From IMG/VR virus record IMGVR_UViG_3300045988_181996: a DNA stretch of 64,000 nt, one strand, 5' to 3'. The translations under genes were made by a program, and so were the position numbers. This document shows, piece after piece, positions 1,434-13,778 of this stretch. This stretch comes from a virus. The notes under the pieces were generated by a model, which was not told the origin of the DNA, made no database searches, and worked only from the letters and a program-made list of their open reading frames with translations. The number at the start of each line of letters is the position of its first letter. The stretch's first letter is position 1.

Positions 1434-2150
1434 AATTTCATCTCCTTAATAATTCAATAAAATTATTGTAGCATATTGTATAATAAAATGCAACTATTTT
1501 TATCGTGTTATTCAATTTTCAATGTTCTTTTCACACTTTTGACAGTTTCCATTAAGTCGCAACCCTTAACAGCTAGGTCAATTCCTAGACACTTCCATTA
1601 CAGAACGTTTCGCAGACTATACGTCAATCTAACCACTCTAACACAAATTTCCTAAGTAGTCAGACCAAATATTTTTCTTCCGCCATTAGCTTGCGGCTTT
1701 ACTCACTGATAATTTATCAGCTTAGTGTTAATTCACTCCCCCATCAGGGGACAGTCGTTAGAGGTTATCCATATCTCTACTATTTGAGACTTAGGACATT
1801 CCTACCGAAATTTACCCTTGTTCACATTGACTTAGCACTAACGTTTTCTAGCATTCACTATTTTCCTTACTAGACACTAATTAGCTTTTATTTCAGCTTT
1901 ACAACCGTTCGCTCTTGTGTAAACTACTAAGCTGTATCAATATCCCGTTCCTTCTTTCTGCTTTCGCTACCATCACGCTTGGATTTTCATCCTACGTTGT
2001 GGCAAACAGGCTTTAAGGTAACTCCTCGGTTTAACTTTTGTAATGATACACACTCCTCACAGAATGTGCAGGGCTTTCTATTTGTCATTGTTACCTAAAT
2101 ATAGAAAATAAGGAAAAATTTTCATATATTCTCTACATTTGTGTAAACTA

Positions 2151-2357
2151 CTAGTTTACCCTAAAGTGATCAACAAACTCAGGACTAAATTCATCTAACG
2201 AATACGTATTATTCTCAGTTCTAAACACATTATTCTTAAAATCCATAATCGCAATAATATCTTTAGGCTCATATCCTACTTTTCGAAAATAAAGTTTATC
2301 TTTATCACTAAATGACGTATACTCATACTTCTCAATTTCTTCGTTAAAATTTTTCAT
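2151..2357 (-). CDS. hypothetical protein 68 aa, first gene of paralog array
   Basis: ORF co-oriented and tightly spaced with the downstream paralog genes. Confidence 0.4.
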   Translation of the reverse strand: MKNFNEEIEKYEYTSFSDKDKLYFRKVGYEPKDIIAIMDFKNNVFRTENNTYSLDEFSPEFVDHFRVN

Positions 2358-2374: not shown

Positions 2375-2722
2375 TTATAATTTTATTTCATTATCATATT
2401 TTTTATTAATACTTTCATTAAGTTCATTCATTACATCTACAAATTCTTCTTCAGTTAGTTTACTACTTACTTCAGAGGATCTCTTATAATTTAAATCAAG
2501 AGAAGGGTTAAAACAATCATCTACATCACCATCTATATAACGAACATTAGACGTAGAACTATTAATATTATCCATACATAAAGCTTGTCTAAATAATTCT
2601 TGGTTTTTATTTATATTACCAGTCATTTTTGTATTAGCAATATTTTGTCTCATATCATCTAAATCAACCAAATCGTTAACGTCAACATTATTTTGATTAA
2701 ATATATTTTTTGCACGTAACAT
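2375..2722 (-). CDS. paralog-array protein (115 aa) carrying only the shared C-terminal 'EEFVDVMNELN' module
   Basis: C-terminal motif shared with the ORFs at 3780, 4612, 5838 and 7476. Confidence 0.5.
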   Translation of the reverse strand: MLRAKNIFNQNNVDVNDLVDLDDMRQNIANTKMTGNINKNQELFRQALCMDNINSSTSNVRYIDGDVDDCFNPSLDLNYKRSSEVSSKLTEEEFVDVMNELNESINKKYDNEIKL

Positions 2723-2738
2723 AAAATCACCCCTTTAA

Positions 2739-3773
2739 TTACCTTTCTAATCCATCATATTGTTTATTTTCTAACCCAAGCATCGGTTGTGATAATTTAC
2801 GAATAACAGCTTCAAAACGAGCTTGTTCTTCTGATATATCCACATCATCTTTATCTTCAATTTCCATACTAGCAGGTTTAGTTAACTCACGTACTTTTGA
2901 AACTCGTTCAGCATTAAACTCAAAATTAAAATTTTTATATTTACTATCAGATTTAATTGTTTGTAGATCCTCAACATAATTATAAAATTCAGAATTTTCA
3001 TCTTGTAAATATAAATCATAACCGTCAACTTTACCTTTTTTATCACAACTAATTATTTTATATTTTTCATCTTTATAATCTAATTTACGAGAATATAAAT
3101 CATAGTTACCAGTAGTATTATTATATTCATAATCAATATTATAGTCTTTAAATTTTTTTTGTACAAGTGGTTCATCTAAAACAACTTTAGATTCTTTTGC
3201 TCTTTTTTCATTAAATCTTTTATGATTCATAATCCACAGTTCTTTATCCATAGGAGCAAGACCTGTCTCTAATTTATCAATTAATGTAATATCACTATTC
3301 TTATCAATTAATAACGGTAATTTTAATCTATAACCAGGTAACCCACCAATTGTTGAAACATTTACATCATATTTTCGTATATTTTCATTGTCAGGTTGTA
3401 ATACTGAATCGCTAACATAAATATGTTTGCTATTTGTAGTTAAATTAAAACCATAACCATTAAAATTAACATCAGTTTTTTCTTTTTCATAAAAATCATT
3501 TTTTAAAAAACCATTATTATTTTTTATATGTTGCACGGTATTAACATAATCATAAAATATTGAATCACTATCTTCTAATTTAATATTTCGTCCTTTAAAC
3601 TTCCCTTCATCATCTACAGTAATTAAATTATAATATCCACCATATTTATCCATAGTACTAATTGCATATCCATCTAATTTTTTATCATAATCTATTGACA
3701 AATTATATTTTTTAAAATTTTCTTGAATTTTTTCATTATCAAAAAAATTTGATTTATTTCTAAAAATACTCAT
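2739..3773 (-). CDS. paralog-array protein, 344 aa, two copies of the Y-x-Y-D..YKxxxY..CDKKG module
   Basis: Internal duplication 'YDKKLDGYAISTMDKYGGYY' / 'YNNTTGNYDLYSRKLDYKDEKYKIISCDKKG'. C-terminal 'QYDGLER'. Confidence 0.6.
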   Translation of the reverse strand: MSIFRNKSNFFDNEKIQENFKKYNLSIDYDKKLDGYAISTMDKYGGYYNLITVDDEGKFKGRNIKLEDSDSIFYDYVNTVQHIKNNNGFLKNDFYEKEKTDVNFNGYGFNLTTNSKHIYVSDSVLQPDNENIRKYDVNVSTIGGLPGYRLKLPLLIDKNSDITLIDKLETGLAPMDKELWIMNHKRFNEKRAKESKVVLDEPLVQKKFKDYNIDYEYNNTTGNYDLYSRKLDYKDEKYKIISCDKKGKVDGYDLYLQDENSEFYNYVEDLQTIKSDSKYKNFNFEFNAERVSKVRELTKPASMEIEDKDDVDISEEQARFEAVIRKLSQPMLGLENKQYDGLER

Positions 3774-3779
3774 TTCAAA

Positions 3780-4520
3780 CTACCTTTCTAAACTTTCTTC
3801 TTGTTCAACTTTATTAAGCTCATTCATCACAGCAACAAATTCTTCTTCAGTTATTACTTCTTTAACTTCGTACTTATCATACATATCAATAAAATGTTGC
3901 ATATCACTTATTTCATTTATATCATTATTAAACGTATCAATATAATTAGTAATATTTTTAAATTTATGTTTATCATCACCCATATCTAAAGCGAATACAC
4001 AATACATAGCATCTTTATTATCATAAGCATTATATAAATCATATTCACCAAGTTTACCATTTGACGATCTAGCGTAATCATCCATATCCCAATCTATAGG
4101 TAACGTTTCAAAATCCATATTACCATAAGTTTCAACTCCGTAAACTTCAAAATTAACAGTATCCCCAGTATAACTTTGTTCAATTACCATTTTACGTTTG
4201 ATATCTTCATTTTCAGTTGGTAACTCAATTACAGTATTAAAACCATCAAAAGTTACTGTATTATCTTTATATTTTTCATCAGCTTTTAAAGACTGCAAAT
4301 TCACAACATAAGTATAAAAAGGTTCAGACTCATCATTAAAATCTATATGATTATCTATAAAAAACCCGTCTTCCTGACAACTTAAAACAGTATATTCATC
4401 ACCCTTATAATCAGGATATGTAGATATTATATCATAATTACGTGATTTTTCATTATATTCAGCTTTTAAATCAAATTCTTTTAATTTATCTTGTATATAT
4501 TTATCTTCAAAAATACTCAT
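3780..4520 (-). CDS. paralog-array protein, 246 aa
   Basis: 'YNEKSRNYDIISTYPDYKGDEYTVLSCQEDG' N-terminal module. 'KLGEYDLY...EEFVAVMNELNKVEQEESLER' C-terminal module shared with the 5838 ORF. Confidence 0.6.
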   Translation of the reverse strand: MSIFEDKYIQDKLKEFDLKAEYNEKSRNYDIISTYPDYKGDEYTVLSCQEDGFFIDNHIDFNDESEPFYTYVVNLQSLKADEKYKDNTVTFDGFNTVIELPTENEDIKRKMVIEQSYTGDTVNFEVYGVETYGNMDFETLPIDWDMDDYARSSNGKLGEYDLYNAYDNKDAMYCVFALDMGDDKHKFKNITNYIDTFNNDINEISDMQHFIDMYDKYEVKEVITEEEFVAVMNELNKVEQEESLER

Positions 4521-4611
4521 TATTTCACCTCACAAAATATTATATCAATATTATAACATAAAAAACCACATATACTAAATTAAAATAACATAAGATAAGT
4601 AGTTCTTATTA

Positions 4612-5745
4612 TTATCTTTCCATTCCTTGATTTTTTTCATCAATTTCAGATTGTGCTATTTGATATGCCATTTTCGACATTACAGCTCTAAAACGTCTAT
4701 CAATTTCTTCTTCTTCTAAACTCTTTTCACGTTTACCTTGAAAACGTTCATTAACCTCATTAATAGCATTAATAAAATCTTGTTCAGAAGGGTCTAATAA
4801 ATTATTTTCTTCTTTTATATATTCAGCTTGAAATTCCTTATATAACTTATTATCAAGTACATTTTCATCTAATAACATTTTGTTAATATCAATTTCTGAA
4901 ACTCTTTTATTTTTCTTATCAAATAATATCTCAAATTCCCTAGATTTACCATTTTCTTTAAAATAATCAAGTGATTTATTTAGAAAATTAGTATTTGCAT
5001 GCAGCAACCCTTTAATCGGTAGTTTTGTTGAATAAGTCGCAACTTCAGTTGTTTTAATTGTATCTACAGCTACTTTATTATTTAGATCATTAGCATATTC
5101 ATAACGTTCAAGACTAGTCATGTTAAACCATTTTTCACGATTTATAGCTGCATCCCATATTAAAGAACGTTCCATATCAATGCTATACTTTTGTTCATAA
5201 TTTCTACAATTTTCAATATTAAAATTATCTGTATTTATAGTTTTTTCAACATGTTTTTTTTCTTTAAAATATTCATCATTTGATACAACTTCTTTTGATA
5301 TATCATCATATAATTTACTTGCTTCACATGTACGTTGATTTTCTTTTTTTAACATAACATTAATATTTACTTCATTATCACTAATAGAAACTTTATCACA
5401 ATTTAATTCAATTTCATTTCCATTAGTTGAACCAGGTCGGTCAAATACTTTTATTGTACCAATCTTAAAGTCATAAAATGAACCAAATTCCTTAAACATT
5501 TCATCACCTTTAATATTTCGAAATATGTTAACAGACGATATGAACTGTGGAAATTCATTTTCGATTTTATTCTCTAATTTATCAGCATCTTTCTTATAAT
5601 GATAACAAACAACATATTCCTTACCTTCATAATTTGGATATGTTGAAATAAGTTGACCACTACCCCTTACATTGTTATATTCATAACGCAAATGACTTTT
5701 CTCTAATCTTTGCTTTGCTACATCTGACAAATTTAATCTTGCCAT
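4612..5745 (-). CDS. paralog-array protein, 377 aa
   Basis: 'YNNVRGSGQLISTYPNYEGKEYVV' module. Divergent C-terminal '...DFINAINEVNE...NQGMER'. Confidence 0.6.
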   Translation of the reverse strand: MARLNLSDVAKQRLEKSHLRYEYNNVRGSGQLISTYPNYEGKEYVVCYHYKKDADKLENKIENEFPQFISSVNIFRNIKGDEMFKEFGSFYDFKIGTIKVFDRPGSTNGNEIELNCDKVSISDNEVNINVMLKKENQRTCEASKLYDDISKEVVSNDEYFKEKKHVEKTINTDNFNIENCRNYEQKYSIDMERSLIWDAAINREKWFNMTSLERYEYANDLNNKVAVDTIKTTEVATYSTKLPIKGLLHANTNFLNKSLDYFKENGKSREFEILFDKKNKRVSEIDINKMLLDENVLDNKLYKEFQAEYIKEENNLLDPSEQDFINAINEVNERFQGKREKSLEEEEIDRRFRAVMSKMAYQIAQSEIDEKNQGMER

Positions 5746-5837
5746 TATTATTCACCACCTATTTTATATAAGATTATTATAACACAAAAAACCACATATC
5801 CCAAATTAAATTAACATGAGATATGCAGTTTACATTG

Positions 5838-7472
5838 TTATCGTTCTAATCCTTTATCTTGTTCTTTATTAGATACTAAATTAACAGCATTTATAAACTC
5901 TTGTTTGTTCTTAAGTTCACTAATATTATCCATATCCTCAATTAAATCATCAATATATGTAGTTACATTTTGATAATCAGTTTTATCTTTTAAAAAGTAT
6001 ACATCATAATCAGTTTTTGTTGTGTGATCATGATTTTTAAATTGAGAATATTCACCCAATTTACCACTTTTACTACCGTCAAACAATTTATTTCCATACA
6101 TACTAGCAATACCATTAAATGAACTTATTTCCTCATCACTTGGATATTCTAAAACATATTTATTCTGAACATCTTCCATCCCGTTCCATGTATATTCGAT
6201 TACTAATTTACGATTGAAATCTTTATTGTTTAAATCAATTTCCATCTTATCACAATAACCGCCATATAAGTTCAACTCAAAATCTTTATATTTCTCATTT
6301 GATTTCAAAGCCTGAAGGTTTTGAACATGACCATAGAAATTAGTATAATCACTCATTAAATCTAAATCCATATCATATGTATTAGTTTCAACAATTCCAT
6401 TTTTATCACATGATATTATTTTATATTCTTCACCTTTATAATCAGGGCAAGTTGAAATTATATCATAATTATCATTTTCTTCATTATAAACAGCTTTTAT
6501 ATTATTTTCATTAAACTCGTTTATCACACGAGATAGATTTACATACCCAATTTCTCTTTCACGACCTAATGTATTCATATATGCTTCATATTGTTTTTTT
6601 TGATTTTCAGGTTCACGTAATTGTTTTATATCTTCTTTAAACCTATAATCAGTTATTTCTTCATATAAATTATTATCAATTAATCCTAATTCTTTTAATT
6701 CATTTGCAACAAAGTAATCAGAATGAAAATTATTATCTTTAGTTAAACGGTTTACCGATTTCATTATATCACTTTTCTCATCACATTTAGTTATTAATTT
6801 ATCTAAATATTCATTAAACTTATTACTATCCTCAACGTCTTCAGTTATTTCAAACGTTTCTATAAAATTCACACCATAAACTTCAAAATCTTCATCATAA
6901 GTAAAATTCTTTATTGAATCATGATAATCATCAATTTGTTTTTCTAATATAACATCTTTCATATTCTCACTCTTAAACCCGTTAAATAACATTCTATCAA
7001 CATCTTGAACACAACCCCACTCATTAGTTAAACGCATTTTAACAGGTGATTTTTTTAAATCATTTCCATCAGTAATTAACTGAATAGTTCGTTCAAAACC
7101 AGTTTTATCCTCATCTTTTAATGTGATATTAATACTACCACCAAGATGCATCATCCAATTCATATTATCACTATATTTAGGATCTAATTCCAAAGAACGA
7201 ACTTTATTCATAGCTGGAATTACAGTATCAATATTATAATCAAAATGACCTAAAAACGATTCACCATATATACTGTCATTTTGAATTTCATAAGTTTGAA
7301 TATCTTTTCCATCAACATTAGAATAAACGCCAAAATTATCAAATTTAGTTAATTTCATAAAATAACCATTATCATCTAATTTTTTTAAAGTTTCTTCACT
7401 AATTATAGAATCAGTTAACTCACGCATTTTATTAATATTTTCGTTTGAATTAAACTTATTTTCACTACTCAT
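5838..7472 (-). CDS. paralog-array protein, 544 aa, unique ~300 aa N-terminal extension fused to shared modules
   Basis: 'YNEENDNYDIISTCPDYKGEEYKIISCDKNG' and 'KLGEYSQF...QEFINAVNLVSNKEQDKGLER'. Confidence 0.6.
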   Translation of the reverse strand: MSSENKFNSNENINKMRELTDSIISEETLKKLDDNGYFMKLTKFDNFGVYSNVDGKDIQTYEIQNDSIYGESFLGHFDYNIDTVIPAMNKVRSLELDPKYSDNMNWMMHLGGSINITLKDEDKTGFERTIQLITDGNDLKKSPVKMRLTNEWGCVQDVDRMLFNGFKSENMKDVILEKQIDDYHDSIKNFTYDEDFEVYGVNFIETFEITEDVEDSNKFNEYLDKLITKCDEKSDIMKSVNRLTKDNNFHSDYFVANELKELGLIDNNLYEEITDYRFKEDIKQLREPENQKKQYEAYMNTLGREREIGYVNLSRVINEFNENNIKAVYNEENDNYDIISTCPDYKGEEYKIISCDKNGIVETNTYDMDLDLMSDYTNFYGHVQNLQALKSNEKYKDFELNLYGGYCDKMEIDLNNKDFNRKLVIEYTWNGMEDVQNKYVLEYPSDEEISSFNGIASMYGNKLFDGSKSGKLGEYSQFKNHDHTTKTDYDVYFLKDKTDYQNVTTYIDDLIEDMDNISELKNKQEFINAVNLVSNKEQDKGLER

Positions 7473-7475
7473 AAT

Positions 7476-8183
7476 CTACAACTCCATCCCATTATCTTTT
7501 TCTTTATTAGTTACCGAATTAACAGCATTTATAAACTCTTGTTCTTTAAGTTTTTTATGTTTTTCAGCATCTAACATACGCTTTTCCTCCAGCAATACAT
7601 TTTTTTCATTTAAATATTCATAAGCGTTATCCATGTAATATTTAACATAATCATGTTCCATCTCCCAAACTTCTTTATCTAATAACTTTAATTCATAATC
7701 ATCAAAAGCACGTTCTAAGTCAGGATAATCAGTTAAATCAACCCCGCCACGCTTAATAGTTTCATTAACCTCGTTATAAACTTCACCAAAGTTATTACCT
7801 ATTGAATTAAGTTCTTCGTAATACACACCGTTAAAAGCTTCTAATAAGTCACCACGGTGAGTATATACATGGTGTCTTGCTGGATCCGTTTCTAAAGATT
7901 CACGTAATCCTAAATATTTCTCATTATCTAACTTTTCAAGAGTAGTTAAGAAATTCGTAAAGTCTTTTCCACCACGACCATTACCAAGTAAATAACTACG
8001 TCTGTCACTAACAACCATAGTGTATTTATGGTCAACTTGTGGTGAGAAGTTTCTACCAAACTCAGCTATCTCACCACTCTTATCAAGTTCTTCTAACTTA
8101 ATTTTATCATCAACATCACTTTTAGCATAAAATTCTCCGTAATATTGAAGTTTATCTAATTGTTCTCGAATATCATTTTTCAT
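7476..8183 (-). CDS. paralog-array protein, 235 aa
   Basis: C-terminal 'QEFINAVNSVTNKEKDNGMEL' module. Different N-terminal domain. Confidence 0.55.
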   Translation of the reverse strand: MKNDIREQLDKLQYYGEFYAKSDVDDKIKLEELDKSGEIAEFGRNFSPQVDHKYTMVVSDRRSYLLGNGRGGKDFTNFLTTLEKLDNEKYLGLRESLETDPARHHVYTHRGDLLEAFNGVYYEELNSIGNNFGEVYNEVNETIKRGGVDLTDYPDLERAFDDYELKLLDKEVWEMEHDYVKYYMDNAYEYLNEKNVLLEEKRMLDAEKHKKLKEQEFINAVNSVTNKEKDNGMEL

Positions 8184-8192
8184 AACTCACCT

Positions 8193-9503
8193 CTAATGCT
8201 CTATTGACCAATCACGTGTTAATTTACGTTTTTCAACATTATCATTTATTTCAGCAATTTGCTTTGTAAAATCTTCTTCATCAAACGTGTTTTCCTGTGT
8301 AATTTTCTTAGCTTTCTTTTCAATTTCCTCAAAGTCAATTTCTTCGGTAAATTCTTCTTCAATAACTTCACCTTCTTTTACTAAGTTGTCCTCAATAGTT
8401 TCTTCAAACTCTTTACGCAATCGTTCTTCACGCTCATCTTCTTCATAAAAATCAAACGGATTTCTGTTATTAACTTTAGCTGTTACCGAAGCTAATTCTT
8501 CCTGAGTTCTTCTTAAATTATCTTCTAATACAGAAGTATCATCTTTATAATAAATAGCATCATCTATTTGTGCTTTTATCATTTTCTCACTTGCTTGTAA
8601 GACCGATTTAAAGTTTTCTTCAATTCGTTGTTTAGGAGTTACTAAGAAATATTTATCTTCAATTTCTTCTTTTCTGTTCATTAATTCAGCTTTACGCTTT
8701 TCTAACTGAGCAAGTTCATTACCAACACGACTTAATTCATCAATATCACTCATAGTTTTAAACATATCACCACGAGAAAGTCTATCACCATCTCTTAATG
8801 TTTGCCAAAATACAGCAACCCCAGTACCAAATGCACCACCATGTTTTGCAATAAACATATTTTCTGATTCGTTTAATATTTCATCATACGATTTACCTTG
8901 GTTATAATTATTTATTACACTTTGTCGTTCTTTATGATTTAACGTACTATAAAACTTTGCAAATTCTGTTCTATCGTTTTCGATATATTCCGACTCAACA
9001 TTTTTATTTGTTTGTTTTTTTATGTCTTTTTCTTTTGGTTTAGTTGTTTTTGTTTGTGGTAGTTCTTCTTTTGTTTGATTACTTTGTAATTGTTGTTTCA
9101 TGATTTCGTTTTCTTTACGTAATCTTTCTAACTCTAATTTTACACTATTTCTTTGTGATTTACTATAATTAGGTGTACTTATTCGACTACCTTGTTTATC
9201 TAAATCACTTTTTCCTATAAATAAATTCTTAAAATCCTTTGGTGATTTTTGTGCAAATTCACGACCTTTACGGTAATATTCAAGGAATTTTTTTACCGTT
9301 TTACTTTCGCTTTGTTTTGCATAATCTTTTAATTTATCTTTTGAATTTTTTACAGTATTGATACCTGCTTTAACAGTCGTTTTAGAAATATCATATAACA
9401 TATCTGATAAAGTAGGACCAAATTGTTCACGTCTTAAATCACGAGCTATTTTATAAGAGTTATAACTAGCTTTAACTTCTTTAATATATGCCAATTTCAT
9501 CAT
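8193..9503 (-). CDS. hypothetical coiled-coil protein, 436 aa, acidic C-terminus
   Basis: Long ORF heading the array. No recognisable catalytic motif. Confidence 0.5.
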   Translation of the reverse strand: MMKLAYIKEVKASYNSYKIARDLRREQFGPTLSDMLYDISKTTVKAGINTVKNSKDKLKDYAKQSESKTVKKFLEYYRKGREFAQKSPKDFKNLFIGKSDLDKQGSRISTPNYSKSQRNSVKLELERLRKENEIMKQQLQSNQTKEELPQTKTTKPKEKDIKKQTNKNVESEYIENDRTEFAKFYSTLNHKERQSVINNYNQGKSYDEILNESENMFIAKHGGAFGTGVAVFWQTLRDGDRLSRGDMFKTMSDIDELSRVGNELAQLEKRKAELMNRKEEIEDKYFLVTPKQRIEENFKSVLQASEKMIKAQIDDAIYYKDDTSVLEDNLRRTQEELASVTAKVNNRNPFDFYEEDEREERLRKEFEETIEDNLVKEGEVIEEEFTEEIDFEEIEKKAKKITQENTFDEEDFTKQIAEINDNVEKRKLTRDWSIEH

Positions 9504-11547: not shown

Positions 11548-11814
11548 TTAAACCTTCAAATTAATTGATTCTAAAAATTCATAATCTTCTTTACTTAATT
11601 TAATTACTTCACCATTATCATTAACTAATGTCGCATTTTCATAAAAAGAATCATATTCTAATTTAAAAATTTGAGGTTTATATTTACTTATATTTTCATT
11701 TACATATTTATATTCTTTTGGAAGTTTATCAATTACAACTGCTACATAAAACATACTCAAATGTGTATATTTTATGATCCTATCATTAAATTTTTGAAAT
11801 TCTTTCTGCTTCAA
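11548..11814 (-). CDS. hypothetical 88-aa protein upstream of flotillin (possible short NfeD-like partner)
   Basis: Position immediately 5' of the SPFH gene. Weak similarity only. Confidence 0.35.
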   Translation of the reverse strand: MKQKEFQKFNDRIIKYTHLSMFYVAVVIDKLPKEYKYVNENISKYKPQIFKLEYDSFYENATLVNDNGEVIKLSKEDYEFLESINLKV

Positions 11815-11923
11815 CCCGTCTGATTTTGTCGTAAAAATGAATAATCATCATTACTGACTACTTTCATTTGATGTGACGATCCACAGACTTAACTTTCCGT
11901 ATAACCCACGGTAGTGACAATAT

Positions 11924-13102
11924 TTATACTGTAGTCAAAACAGTGTAGTTTTGACATTGTTCTAAGTTTAGAGATGCGTTTATATCTCGGTCGTGAACAA
12001 CGCTACATTTTGGACATGTCCAAGTACGTTCTTTTAATTTTAACTCTGTGTTTTTATACCCACAACAAGAACATAACTTGCTAGAAGGGTAGAAACGTGG
12101 AGCTAAACGTAGTTCAATCCCTAGTTTTTCACATTGGTTAGTTAAGAACAATCTTGACATATACCATTGTGCATTGGAAATTGTTTTAGATAAATGTTTA
12201 TTTTTCATTAGACTTTTTATATTCAAGTCTTCAATAGTTATAAAACTTGGTTTTTGTTTCATAATTGATTGTAGAGCTTTTTGATTATAATCAGTTCTAA
12301 TTCTTGTTATTCTTTCATAAAGTTTATTAACAAGTCTTTGATTTTTATTTAAATTTTTACATTCTCTCAAAGGGCGATTCCAATTAAAACTTTTTAATTG
12401 TCCTTTTTTCTTTCCTGTCTTGTAATAAACTTTATTAATCATGTTGTGTTCATATTTACGTGACAATGCACGTTGTTTTTGTTTTAACTTTTTCTCAAGT
12501 TTTATAACTCGTTTTGATTTGTTAATAGACGGTATCGTTTCATTTTTTGTAATGAATTGGTTTTTTATTCCAAAATCAATACCTATACCATGTGTAGAGG
12601 TAACGGTTTGTTTGATATTCACTTCATCAGTTAAACAAGAAACAAAGTAACGTCCATTTTTCATAGAAACAGTGACAGATTTAACATTATTCGGTATATA
12701 ACCAAATTCTTTTAATCGAACCCATTTTAGTTTAGGTAAAAAAATACGATGTCTTTCAACTTTTATTGTACCAATTAAATAGAAACTATTATTTTTTGAT
12801 TTCTTTTTAAAATTTGGTTTTCCTTTTTTACCATTTAAATAATCCCACATTGCTTTATGACCGTTCATTATTGCTTGTTTTATAGCTTTACTAGGTGACT
12901 TAATTAACCAATCAGGTCTATTTGGATCGTTATTTATCATCTTTGAATAATCATATCCTGAGATAATAGGTTGATTATTTTCTAAACGTTTAAAATTATA
13001 ACTGATAAATTGATTATAAATGTATCTAGTATTACCAAACGTTTGATGTATTAAATTAATTTGTTCTTTATTGGGTTTGATTTCTGTCTTGTAAGCTTTC
13101 AT
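11924..13102 (-). CDS. tnpB: second, divergent IS200/IS605-family TnpB, 392 aa
   Basis: 'RFYPSSKLCSCCGYKNTELKLKERTWTCPKCSVVHDRDINASLNL' zinc finger. 'ITIEDLNIKSLMKNKHLSK' RuvC-II-like. No tnpA. Confidence 0.85.
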   Translation of the reverse strand: MKAYKTEIKPNKEQINLIHQTFGNTRYIYNQFISYNFKRLENNQPIISGYDYSKMINNDPNRPDWLIKSPSKAIKQAIMNGHKAMWDYLNGKKGKPNFKKKSKNNSFYLIGTIKVERHRIFLPKLKWVRLKEFGYIPNNVKSVTVSMKNGRYFVSCLTDEVNIKQTVTSTHGIGIDFGIKNQFITKNETIPSINKSKRVIKLEKKLKQKQRALSRKYEHNMINKVYYKTGKKKGQLKSFNWNRPLRECKNLNKNQRLVNKLYERITRIRTDYNQKALQSIMKQKPSFITIEDLNIKSLMKNKHLSKTISNAQWYMSRLFLTNQCEKLGIELRLAPRFYPSSKLCSCCGYKNTELKLKERTWTCPKCSVVHDRDINASLNLEQCQNYTVLTTV

Positions 13103-13184: not shown

Positions 13185-13778
13185 CTATTCTCTTAATTTT
13201 TTATTTTCATCTTTTAATTTATTATAGTTATCTTTAAGTTTTGTATTCTCACTTTGTAATTTACTATAATCTTCTTTTAATTTAATATTTTCATCTGTTA
13301 GTTTTTTTGAATCATCTTTTAAAGTATCTAATTTTTTTGTGTATTCATCAACAATTGTTTTTGTTTCTTTATCTAACTTTTCTTTATACTCTTTTTCAAG
13401 TTCTTCTTTAGCTTCTTTTTTCGAATTTTCTAATTCTTCTTTTTGTGCTTGTTTTTGTTTTTCTTCCATTTCTTTTTGTTTTTGTCGTCTTGTTTCAATT
13501 GTTTCTTTAGTTAATTCATTCTTACGATCTAATTCTTCTTGAGATAATCGTTTTTGTTCAATAGCATGTTGTTTTGCTAATTTTGTATTTTGCATATATT
13601 GCCCTATAATAACTCCAAAGGTTGTAACAGCAAATACAGAAACAATAATTATTTTCCATCTTTTTTTTCTAGCATCTTTTTCACGTTTTTTTATAAAATT
13701 TTCATCTGAATCATCTAAATGATCGTTATAAACATCTTTTAAGTGCTTATTTCTTTTAAATATATCTAAAAAACCCAT
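13185..13778 (-). CDS. membrane-anchored K/E-rich coiled-coil protein, 197 aa
   Basis: Single TM helix 'IIIVSVFAVTTFGVIIG' followed by charged coiled-coil. Confidence 0.5.
   Translation of the reverse strand: MGFLDIFKRNKHLKDVYNDHLDDSDENFIKKREKDARKKRWKIIIVSVFAVTTFGVIIGQYMQNTKLAKQHAIEQKRLSQEELDRKNELTKETIETRRQKQKEMEEKQKQAQKEELENSKKEAKEELEKEYKEKLDKETKTIVDEYTKKLDTLKDDSKKLTDENIKLKEDYSKLQSENTKLKDNYNKLKDENKKLRE

Follow-up and report, generated by a model that had tools for sequence, protein, structure and literature searches.

A predicted group I intron at the left end of a tnpB-bearing mobile element in phage contigs and its probable place in a new family of IS607-type IStrons

The window analysed here is a 64,000-nt stretch of viral DNA (IMG/VR record IMGVR_UViG_3300045988_181996). 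The genes at its left end are all encoded on the minus strand: a tnpB gene for a 412-aa RNA-guided nuclease (38-1276), a 58-aa Arc-like ribbon-helix-helix (RHH) gene (1257-1433), whose stop is overlapped by the tnpB start by 20 nt, and a 68-aa ORF (2151-2357). The block at 1434-2150, which a first-pass annotation had described as GC-rich non-coding DNA between RHH-tnpB and an array of paralogous ORFs, therefore lies 5' of RHH-tnpB and is no free-standing spacer. Its GC enrichment is real, with 35.7% over positions 1460-2150 (somewhat lower than the ~40% first given) and 37.4% over positions 1544-2158, against a window mean of 27.6% (sd 3.3%, 691-nt windows), and the block ranked 20th among 1267 such 691-nt windows. 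No ORF longer than 60 aa was present in 1434-2150, consistent with the earlier statement that none reaches 100 aa.

The minus strand from position 2158 down to position 1 belongs to a mobile element 2323 nt in length, of which it covers the first 2158 nt. The end of this element was read in a 170-kb metagenomic contig (L002), which was found via a look-up of the 68-aa ORF, matches the window in 2157 of 2158 nt, and extends beyond the window start to supply the last 165 nt, the predicted 3' splice site and the 3' exon. The element begins directly after ...AGGG inside the 68-aa ORF, with U2158 as its first nucleotide, and ends with ...TTACGG. Its left end and predicted 5' splice site (2144-2158) contain the palindrome TAAACTAGTAGTTTA, which forms the left-end hairpin, and the G-rich, TAM-like target site AGGG (2162-2159) makes up the last bases of the 5' exon. 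TnpB relatives with 74-84% identity were present on 30 viral contigs of 11-284 kb. Related large contigs of phages contain ~15 independent insertions. Their homology starts with TAAACTA immediately after GGG and stops at ...ACGG; the latter ending was found at 14 of the 15 sites, the exception being one insertion shared by L021 and L029, which ends in ACGT. These elements, here called family 1, are 2280-2327 nt long. GenBank phages gave no megablast match to a 12-kb portion of the window, and an exact-protein look-up of the window TnpB was likewise without result.

Uninterrupted homologs ("empty sites") exist for three insertion sites, namely those of L012 (empty in L059, 93% identity, and in L039), L015 (empty in L017, L030 and L032) and L017 (empty in L015 and L018). 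Since occupied and empty alleles have equal length in the junction alignments of the L012 and L015 sites, no target sequence was duplicated. The element is thus a discrete mobile DNA unit that inserts right after a GGG motif without target duplication. At the L012 site, the empty alleles (L059 5900-6012; L039 7700-7817) encode the glycine at the target with GGT, whereas the occupied allele uses GGG; because this synonymous difference removes the target motif NGGG, they could be escape or immune alleles, although chance may also be the explanation. The L021/L029 3' junction (5439-5443) reads ...TTACGT for ...TTACGG, and its flanking frames join only with a 1-nt shift; either the 3' splice site may be damaged or the host gene may have become a pseudogene. 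Deletion derivatives were seen in L008 (3700-3800), L016 (3930-4000), L019, L025 and L026 (upstream of 4001), all of which keep tnpB and the tail and are without most or all of the intron. The intergenic L016 derivative has kept only ~25 nt of the left end, joined to the last RHH codons. Those of L025 and L026 adjoin tRNA gene arrays.

The sequence upstream of the element (2159-2357, minus strand) is a 5' exon encoding the N-terminal part of an interrupted phage gene, and the apparent stop codon of the 68-aa ORF (TAG, 2153-2151) is part of the element. Once the element is taken out precisely in L002, this ORF continues in frame into a downstream 119-aa ORF, resulting in a 244-codon open frame in which ...DHFR is followed by VFASVEN... 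at the junction. The predicted exon-exon junction of the window element would read ...CACUUUAGGG joined to UAUUUGCUUC (also written ...GAUCACUUUAGGG joined to UAUUUGCUUCAGUUG). Of the 13 independent sites, 10 regained a long sense-strand ORF upon exact excision, a bias in orientation that may partly stem from the strongly co-oriented genes of these phages; two of the restored frames stay open for more than 1000 codons, up to the edge of the sequence read. The insertion at an 11th site lies 7 codons past a start codon, and the remaining two (L021 and L022) gave no clear restored ORF. A long antisense frame across the junction was found at none of the sites tested. The viral contigs contained no uninterrupted homolog of the spliced 234-aa host protein. 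This interrupted gene lies at the edge of the paralogous array, whose ORFs (2375-9503, minus strand) are without a Pfam match, measure 115-544 aa and mostly end with ...G(L/M)ER or ...SLER.

The structure of the block was analysed in a MAFFT alignment of 19 sequences, comprising the window copy, 14 other family-1 members and four sequences of a sister family (family 2). The resulting model is that of a group I intron ribozyme of ~615 nt (1544-2158, minus strand) with helices P1 to P9.2 and a P3/P7 pseudoknot. In this model, P1 would be formed by the exon GGG and U2158 with G2074-C2071, followed by P2 (2070-2047), P3 (2040-2033 with 1673-1666), P4 (2029-2024 with 1810-1805), P5 (2019-2015 with 1818-1814) and a P5 extension (about 2014-1819). 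The 3' half would consist of P6/6a/6b (1803-1762), P7 (1756-1751 with 1620-1615), P7.1 (1750-1739), an optional hairpin (1720-1706), P7.2 (1696-1680), P8 (1665-1627), P9 (about 1609-1590), P9.1 (1588-1573) and P9.2 (1572-1549), with a GAAAC motif at 1549-1545. The family-1 ribozyme is enlarged by a hairpin in the P1 loop, two extra hairpins in the P5 extension and the optional 34-nt hairpin after P7.1, and the motif after P9.2 is GGAAACU or GGAAACA.

RNAalifold independently returned P1, P2, the helices of the P5 extension, P6/6a/6b, P7, P7.1, P7.2, P8, P9 and P9.2, with compensatory changes in 42 of the 103 consensus pairs. The full model, to which P3, P4, P5 and the P3/P7 pseudoknot had been added (133 pairs), was pairing in 96.1% of cells versus 32-43% with slid partners, and had a covariation score of 0.266 versus 0.04-0.08. 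Double changes occurred in 43 of the 133 pairs; slid controls had 3-10 such pairs and shuffled ones 26.5±3, none of the 500 shuffles reaching 43. Here it should be noted that the covariation rests mainly on two sequence families, that most double changes separate these two, and that inherited changes are thus counted many times, so that cells overcount evolutionary events. Compensatory changes were also present within family 1 itself, in P2, P5b, P6b, P7.1, P7.2 and P9.2. In addition, P4 and P5 covary across six lineages: P4 is CCGAGG/UUUCGG in the window, family 2 has UGCU/AGCA, and phages c-st, Fnu1 and PMBT8 have UGCUGG/UCAGCA, AACUAGG/UUUAGUU and UGCUAGG/UUUAGCA, respectively, with the P5 pair adjoining P4 alternating between A-U and U-A; an apparent break of P4 in family 2 arose because MAFFT had misplaced one gap. 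The R/S-like elements AACGACU...AUAUAGUC are invariant, and each of the 19 aligned sequences has the guanosine-binding G418-C561 pair in P7. Inspection of the minus strand by eye also picks out R and S elements of group I type, as CUCUAACGACU ... GUAUAGUCUG, together with a P6/P6a segment similar to the Tetrahymena intron's, a likeness that served as a lead only. A long-range UAUCA/UGAUA pairing was dropped from the model, as it would cross P3 and never varies between copies. Judged by this comparative fold, the block is a complete group I intron with a P3-P8 core and pseudoknot plus P1, P2 and P9, and it is fused to the left end of an insertion sequence. The general idea of the first-pass annotation, a structured RNA belonging to a tnpB-linked mobile element, was borne out; its description as a remnant was not.

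Rfam scans of the window and L002 gave no significant match in the block, and weak matches to RT-18 and miRNA models were attributed to chance. The group I model RF00028 scored the window copy at 11.7 bits (E=4), short of its gathering score of 50 bits, and the family-2 intron of L039 at 42.3 bits (E=7.6e-8), and it did not match the published IStron of phage c-st at E<=1. Since that published element was missed as well, RF00028 is insensitive to the IStron clade. The first-pass annotation had named the lack of an Rfam hit combined with no conservation of pairing as what would refute its reading; for the window copy only the former was found, and pairing is strongly conserved and covaries.

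Downstream of the intron, a 41-nt arm of an AU-rich inverted repeat (1503-1543, minus strand) encloses the ORF region together with its 3' partner, which lies beyond window position 1, just before ...TTACGG (L002 12481-12517). Calculated energies of the duplex range from -34 to -48 kcal/mol for 15 of the 16 copies, with -25.4 kcal/mol for the hybrid copy L013, and compensatory changes occur here too, such as AAAGTG/CACTTT versus AAAATG/CATTTT. The arm is followed by a putative internal promoter (1465-1493, minus strand), consisting of TTGCAT (1493-1488), a 17-nt spacer and TGcTACAAT (1473-1465). A simple promoter consensus scan did not list it; the arrangement TTGCAT-17-TGnTACAAT is conserved in 17 of 17 aligned copies and would serve as the promoter for RHH-tnpB. 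A ribosome-binding site AGGAG (1446-1442) precedes the RHH gene, which takes the place of the IS607 transposase gene tnpA and is the sole ORF between intron and tnpB; a serine recombinase TnpA was not found in the window element. The RHH ORF is intact in every intron-bearing copy, with a dN/dS of ~0.09. Similarity of its product to Arc, NikA and CopG is weak: the Pfam NikA-like match (E=1.8e-4, 22 bits) is under the cut-off of 27, the PHROG Arc-like repressor match has E=5.7e-3, and a single-sequence AF2 monomer model with a disordered N-terminus and two helices (pLDDT 70) had NikA, CopG and Arc among its best Foldseek matches, all with E>1. A tblastn search of the RHH protein against phages gave no match, and its profile found only spurious prolactin matches among PDB sequences. 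The TnpB assignment is supported by Pfam (OrfB_IS605, 5e-14; Cas12f1-like TNB, 1e-19) and PHROG transposase (1e-80) matches, and inspection revealed the RuvC residues D (GVDLG), E (IAIEDL) and D (DRDLNA). The remaining positions 1-37 start the 3' tail (L002 12321-12522), which presumably comprises the guide-RNA scaffold and the right end. No RAGATH-18 (RF03064) match was obtained downstream of this tnpB at E<=1 (L002 9900-12700).

Family 2 elements occur on the same phage contigs, start with TAACAAACCTGTTA after GGG, and have the canonical IS607 layout of intron, MerR-HTH serine recombinase TnpA, tnpB and RAGATH-18 guide RNA. Their intron of about 495 nt is ~70% identical to the window intron in two core blocks, and the sequence after P9.2 is GUGAACAAG, with the published GAACAA motif. 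RAGATH-18 matches were obtained in L039, L070, L084 and at window positions 11803-11887. The published phage c-st IStron starts with TAACTAACAGTTA after GAGG, ends with CAACGG, and has a left-end hairpin nearly identical to that of the window element. A family-1 profile matched it in two collinear blocks (E=4.7e-6 and 2.5e-3, single-locus nhmmer), and a P6-P7' covariance model did not reach it. The latter model scored introns of Staphylococcus phage PMBT8 at 87, 77, 35 and 27 bits; in Fusobacterium phage Fnu1 it gave 66 bits for a locus upstream of tnpB. A 76-nt block that is 80% identical to PMBT8 forms the P5abc-like three-way junction. The core and this junction, with its GAAA tetraloops and A-rich bulge, are common to the window intron and the Twort-type (IA2) introns of Staphylococcus phages, but these introns are not fused to an insertion sequence, carry or neighbour ORFs other than tnpB, and have neither the left-end hairpin nor the inverted-repeat stem nor the GGG target.

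The closest described elements are the group B IStrons, such as CboIStron/CbISt1-4 (Clostridium botulinum, phage c-st) and BcISt1 (Bacillus cereus group). Group B IStrons insert after GG-ending sites, begin with U and have a CGG 3' end; they contain an IA2 intron with P7.1, P7.2 and P9.0-9.2 and have their IS genes placed behind P9.2, a long inverted repeat rich in A and U, an ORF A that is often missing, and, after P9.2, one of the five motifs GAACGA, GAACAA, GAACAC, GAAUAA and GAAUAU (PMC4227781). The window element shares the 5' position of the intron, the IS genes after P9.2 including tnpB, the sense-oriented insertion after a GG-ending site (NGGG here) without target duplication, U as the first nucleotide, the CGG end, the long AU-rich inverted repeat around the ORFs, and exons that can be restored. 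Every listed group B feature was thus found except the exact motif after P9.2, which is GAAACU or GAAACA and none of the five published variants. The window element further differs in having an RHH gene instead of a serine recombinase TnpA, an intron of about 615 nt versus about 495 nt in family 2 (the extra being the P1-loop, P5-extension and optional hairpins), a 3' tail without a RAGATH-18 match, a TnpB only ~35% identical to that of c-st, and hosts that are represented by 100-284-kb phage contigs from metagenomes. An Arc-like RHH ORF encoded by an IStron has been reported earlier (10.1101/2023.11.20.567912). As with the Arc-like RHH ORFs of IStrons and Arc of IS605 elements, a small RHH gene within the transposon lies beside tnpB with promoter-like intergenic sequence upstream; a point of difference is that the window arc and tnpB genes are co-directional with overlapping frames. 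The window TnpB also shares its IS607 context and G-rich target-adjacent motif with the IS607 TnpB proteins that use RAGATH-18-derived guide RNAs (PMC11061315). Altogether, we consider it highly probable (roughly 0.88) that the block constitutes the group I intron portion of a group B, IS607-type IStron that also carries an Arc-like RHH gene and tnpB. The window family is a new IStron family, of a kind that itself has already been described.

Of the competing explanations, the one that survives best, improbable as we hold it to be, is that the block derives from an IStron but no longer splices, with the host gene knocked out and the RNA decaying. Such an inactive relic would be in line with the failure of Rfam to recognise the window copy, the extra insertions in the family (in the P1 loop, the P5 extension and the optional 34-nt hairpin), the existence of the five intron-less deletion derivatives, and the lack of a transposase gene. 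It is difficult to reconcile with helices that are kept by compensatory changes within family 1, with invariant core junction sequences, and with a window copy that has no disruptive change in P3, P4, P6, P7 or P8. Moreover, 10 or 11 of the 13 insertions are sense-oriented and frame-preserving in long ORFs, and such insertions would not persist in dead host genes.

We give even less credence to the possibility that the block has no catalytic role and serves the RHH-tnpB operon as a structured regulatory RNA or long 5' leader, or is mere DNA of the IS left end. The block does lie directly upstream of RHH-tnpB and its first ~25 nt act as a transposon left end, as judged from L016. However, the conserved promoter-like element is situated downstream of both the block and the inverted-repeat arm, which would put the block outside the operon's own transcript; the intron-less derivatives keep tnpB; and the block folds like a group I ribozyme, in common with ordinary phage introns without tnpB, as in PMBT8. 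The group II intron fragment or retron-like RNA proposed in the first-pass annotation, for which a length of ~600 nt (suited to an ORF-less group II intron) and the supposedly domain VI-like string AATGTGAACAAGGG (minus strand, ~1826-1813) had spoken, is refuted by the covariation-supported group I fold with its R/S-like elements; the block had no Rfam match to group II Domain V/VI, Intron_gpII or D1-D4 even at E<=10, no domain V and no msr/msd match, no reverse transcriptase gene was present among the flanking ORFs examined, and, within the string, AATGTG differs between copies and AAGGG is the 3' strand of P5.

Other details noticed at first pass found a place in the group I fold. The hairpins CCCCATCAGGGG (1739-1750, plus strand) and GCCGCAAGCTAATGGCGG (minus strand, 1697-1680) are indeed present, corresponding on the minus strand to P7.1 and P7.2, and both have compensatory changes in homologs. 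The 14-nt direct repeat is exact as well, with copies at 2140-2153, overlapping the left-end hairpin, and at 1916-1929 (plus strand), in a family-1-specific hairpin of the P5 extension, 1-2 nt from the coordinates first given; 0.07 such matches would be expected by chance. It was first described as flanking the distal 220 bp; the intervening 220 nt are no inserted unit and belong to the conserved intron core, running from the loop of P1 into the P5 extension. Exact identity of the two repeats is confined to the window lineage, other copies reading TAACAGTTTACACA versus TAGTAGCTAACACA, and the second repeat is missing from family 2. A nested insertion or target duplication was rejected as its origin, given that it is not conserved and brackets core intron helices.

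Read as an IStron, the element runs from the left-end hairpin through the ~615-nt ribozyme, the AU-rich arm, the promoter, RHH and tnpB to a guide-RNA and right-end tail finishing in ...ACGG. Upon transcription of the host gene, P1 would pair the exon GGG and intron U1 with the internal guide GCCC, and the inverted-repeat stem would return the distant 3' end, with its terminal G, to the catalytic core. The intron could then excise the whole 2.3-kb element with rejoining of the exons, so that the interrupted phage gene would stay functional; the sense-oriented insertions whose removal restores reading frames are indirect evidence for such splicing. With a guide RNA that begins in the 3' tail and continues into the 3' flank, TnpB would cleave alleles that lack the intron and bear NGGG, and thereby drive retention or homing. 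In CboIStron, the TAM is TGGG, the guide scaffold ends with UCGG, and splicing and guide RNA are antagonistic (10.1101/2023.11.20.567912); by analogy, splicing and guide-RNA maturation may be mutually exclusive here as well. Arc represses IS605 promoters (10.64898/2026.09.24.754181), the repressor function being established only for Arc proteins of the IS605 family. For the RHH protein of the window element, repression of the internal promoter is the most likely role, with repeated ATTGAA motifs within 1434-1545 as a candidate operator. As the window copy has no transposase gene, new insertions would need TnpA in trans, for which family 2, which encodes one in the same phages, is a candidate donor, the alternative being TnpB-driven copying. 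We infer the splicing, guide-RNA and RHH functions of the window element from its sequence.

A more far-reaching and tentative view, which we regard as unlikely in its full form, is that of a transposase-less Arc-TnpB IStron lineage specialised for large phages, homing between co-infecting phages via TnpB cutting and recombinational copying, with a scaffold unrelated to RAGATH-18 and an enlarged P1/P5 region that couples splicing to the transposon end. If true, its spread would resemble that of a phage homing endonuclease, and the GGT empty alleles would be escape variants. IStrons join a ribozyme, a transposon and an RNA-guided nuclease in one element, and the few families described are mostly from Clostridia, Bacilli and Fusobacteria. 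The present locus adds a well-sampled family, for which ~15 sites of insertion, several empty alleles and a set of deletion derivatives are available, along with a sister family in the same large metagenomic phages that does encode a transposase. It offers natural material for studying the balance of splicing, guide RNA and Arc repression in an element without its own transposase, and TnpB as a possible homing nuclease between phages. It also raises an annotation issue, in that the two parts of an interrupted gene are annotated as short ORFs of their own and the Rfam group I model misses the ribozyme.

Several further loci came to light during the analysis. A second tnpB gene in the window (392 aa, 11924-13102, minus strand) is followed by the RAGATH-18 RNA at 11803-11887 (minus strand; 69 bits, above the gathering score) and looks like an intron-less IS607-type TnpB/guide-RNA unit; the upstream ORF (13185-13778) has no recombinase domain, and the intron profile found no second intron in the window. 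The family-1 copy in L013 (3150-3290) has a differing 5' end, with UUGGG followed by AUGACUUGAAGAGCAGCCCAAC, its own P1/P2 and no left-end hairpin, and shares sequence with the other copies only from the P4/P5 region on, which suggests recombination with an ordinary group I intron. In PMBT8 (L001, MK893987), up to four related group I cores (minus strand, 2343-2467, 3532-3719, 4299-4403 and 4619-4786) sit within about 2.5 kb of a tail-gene region; as this region is annotated as hypothetical proteins only, its genes appear to be split by unannotated introns. In Fnu1 (L070), finally, an intron (3364-3885), tnpB (4001-5101) and RAGATH-18 (5174-5237) lie in series, and this locus, annotated merely as "transposase", is an apparent IStron.
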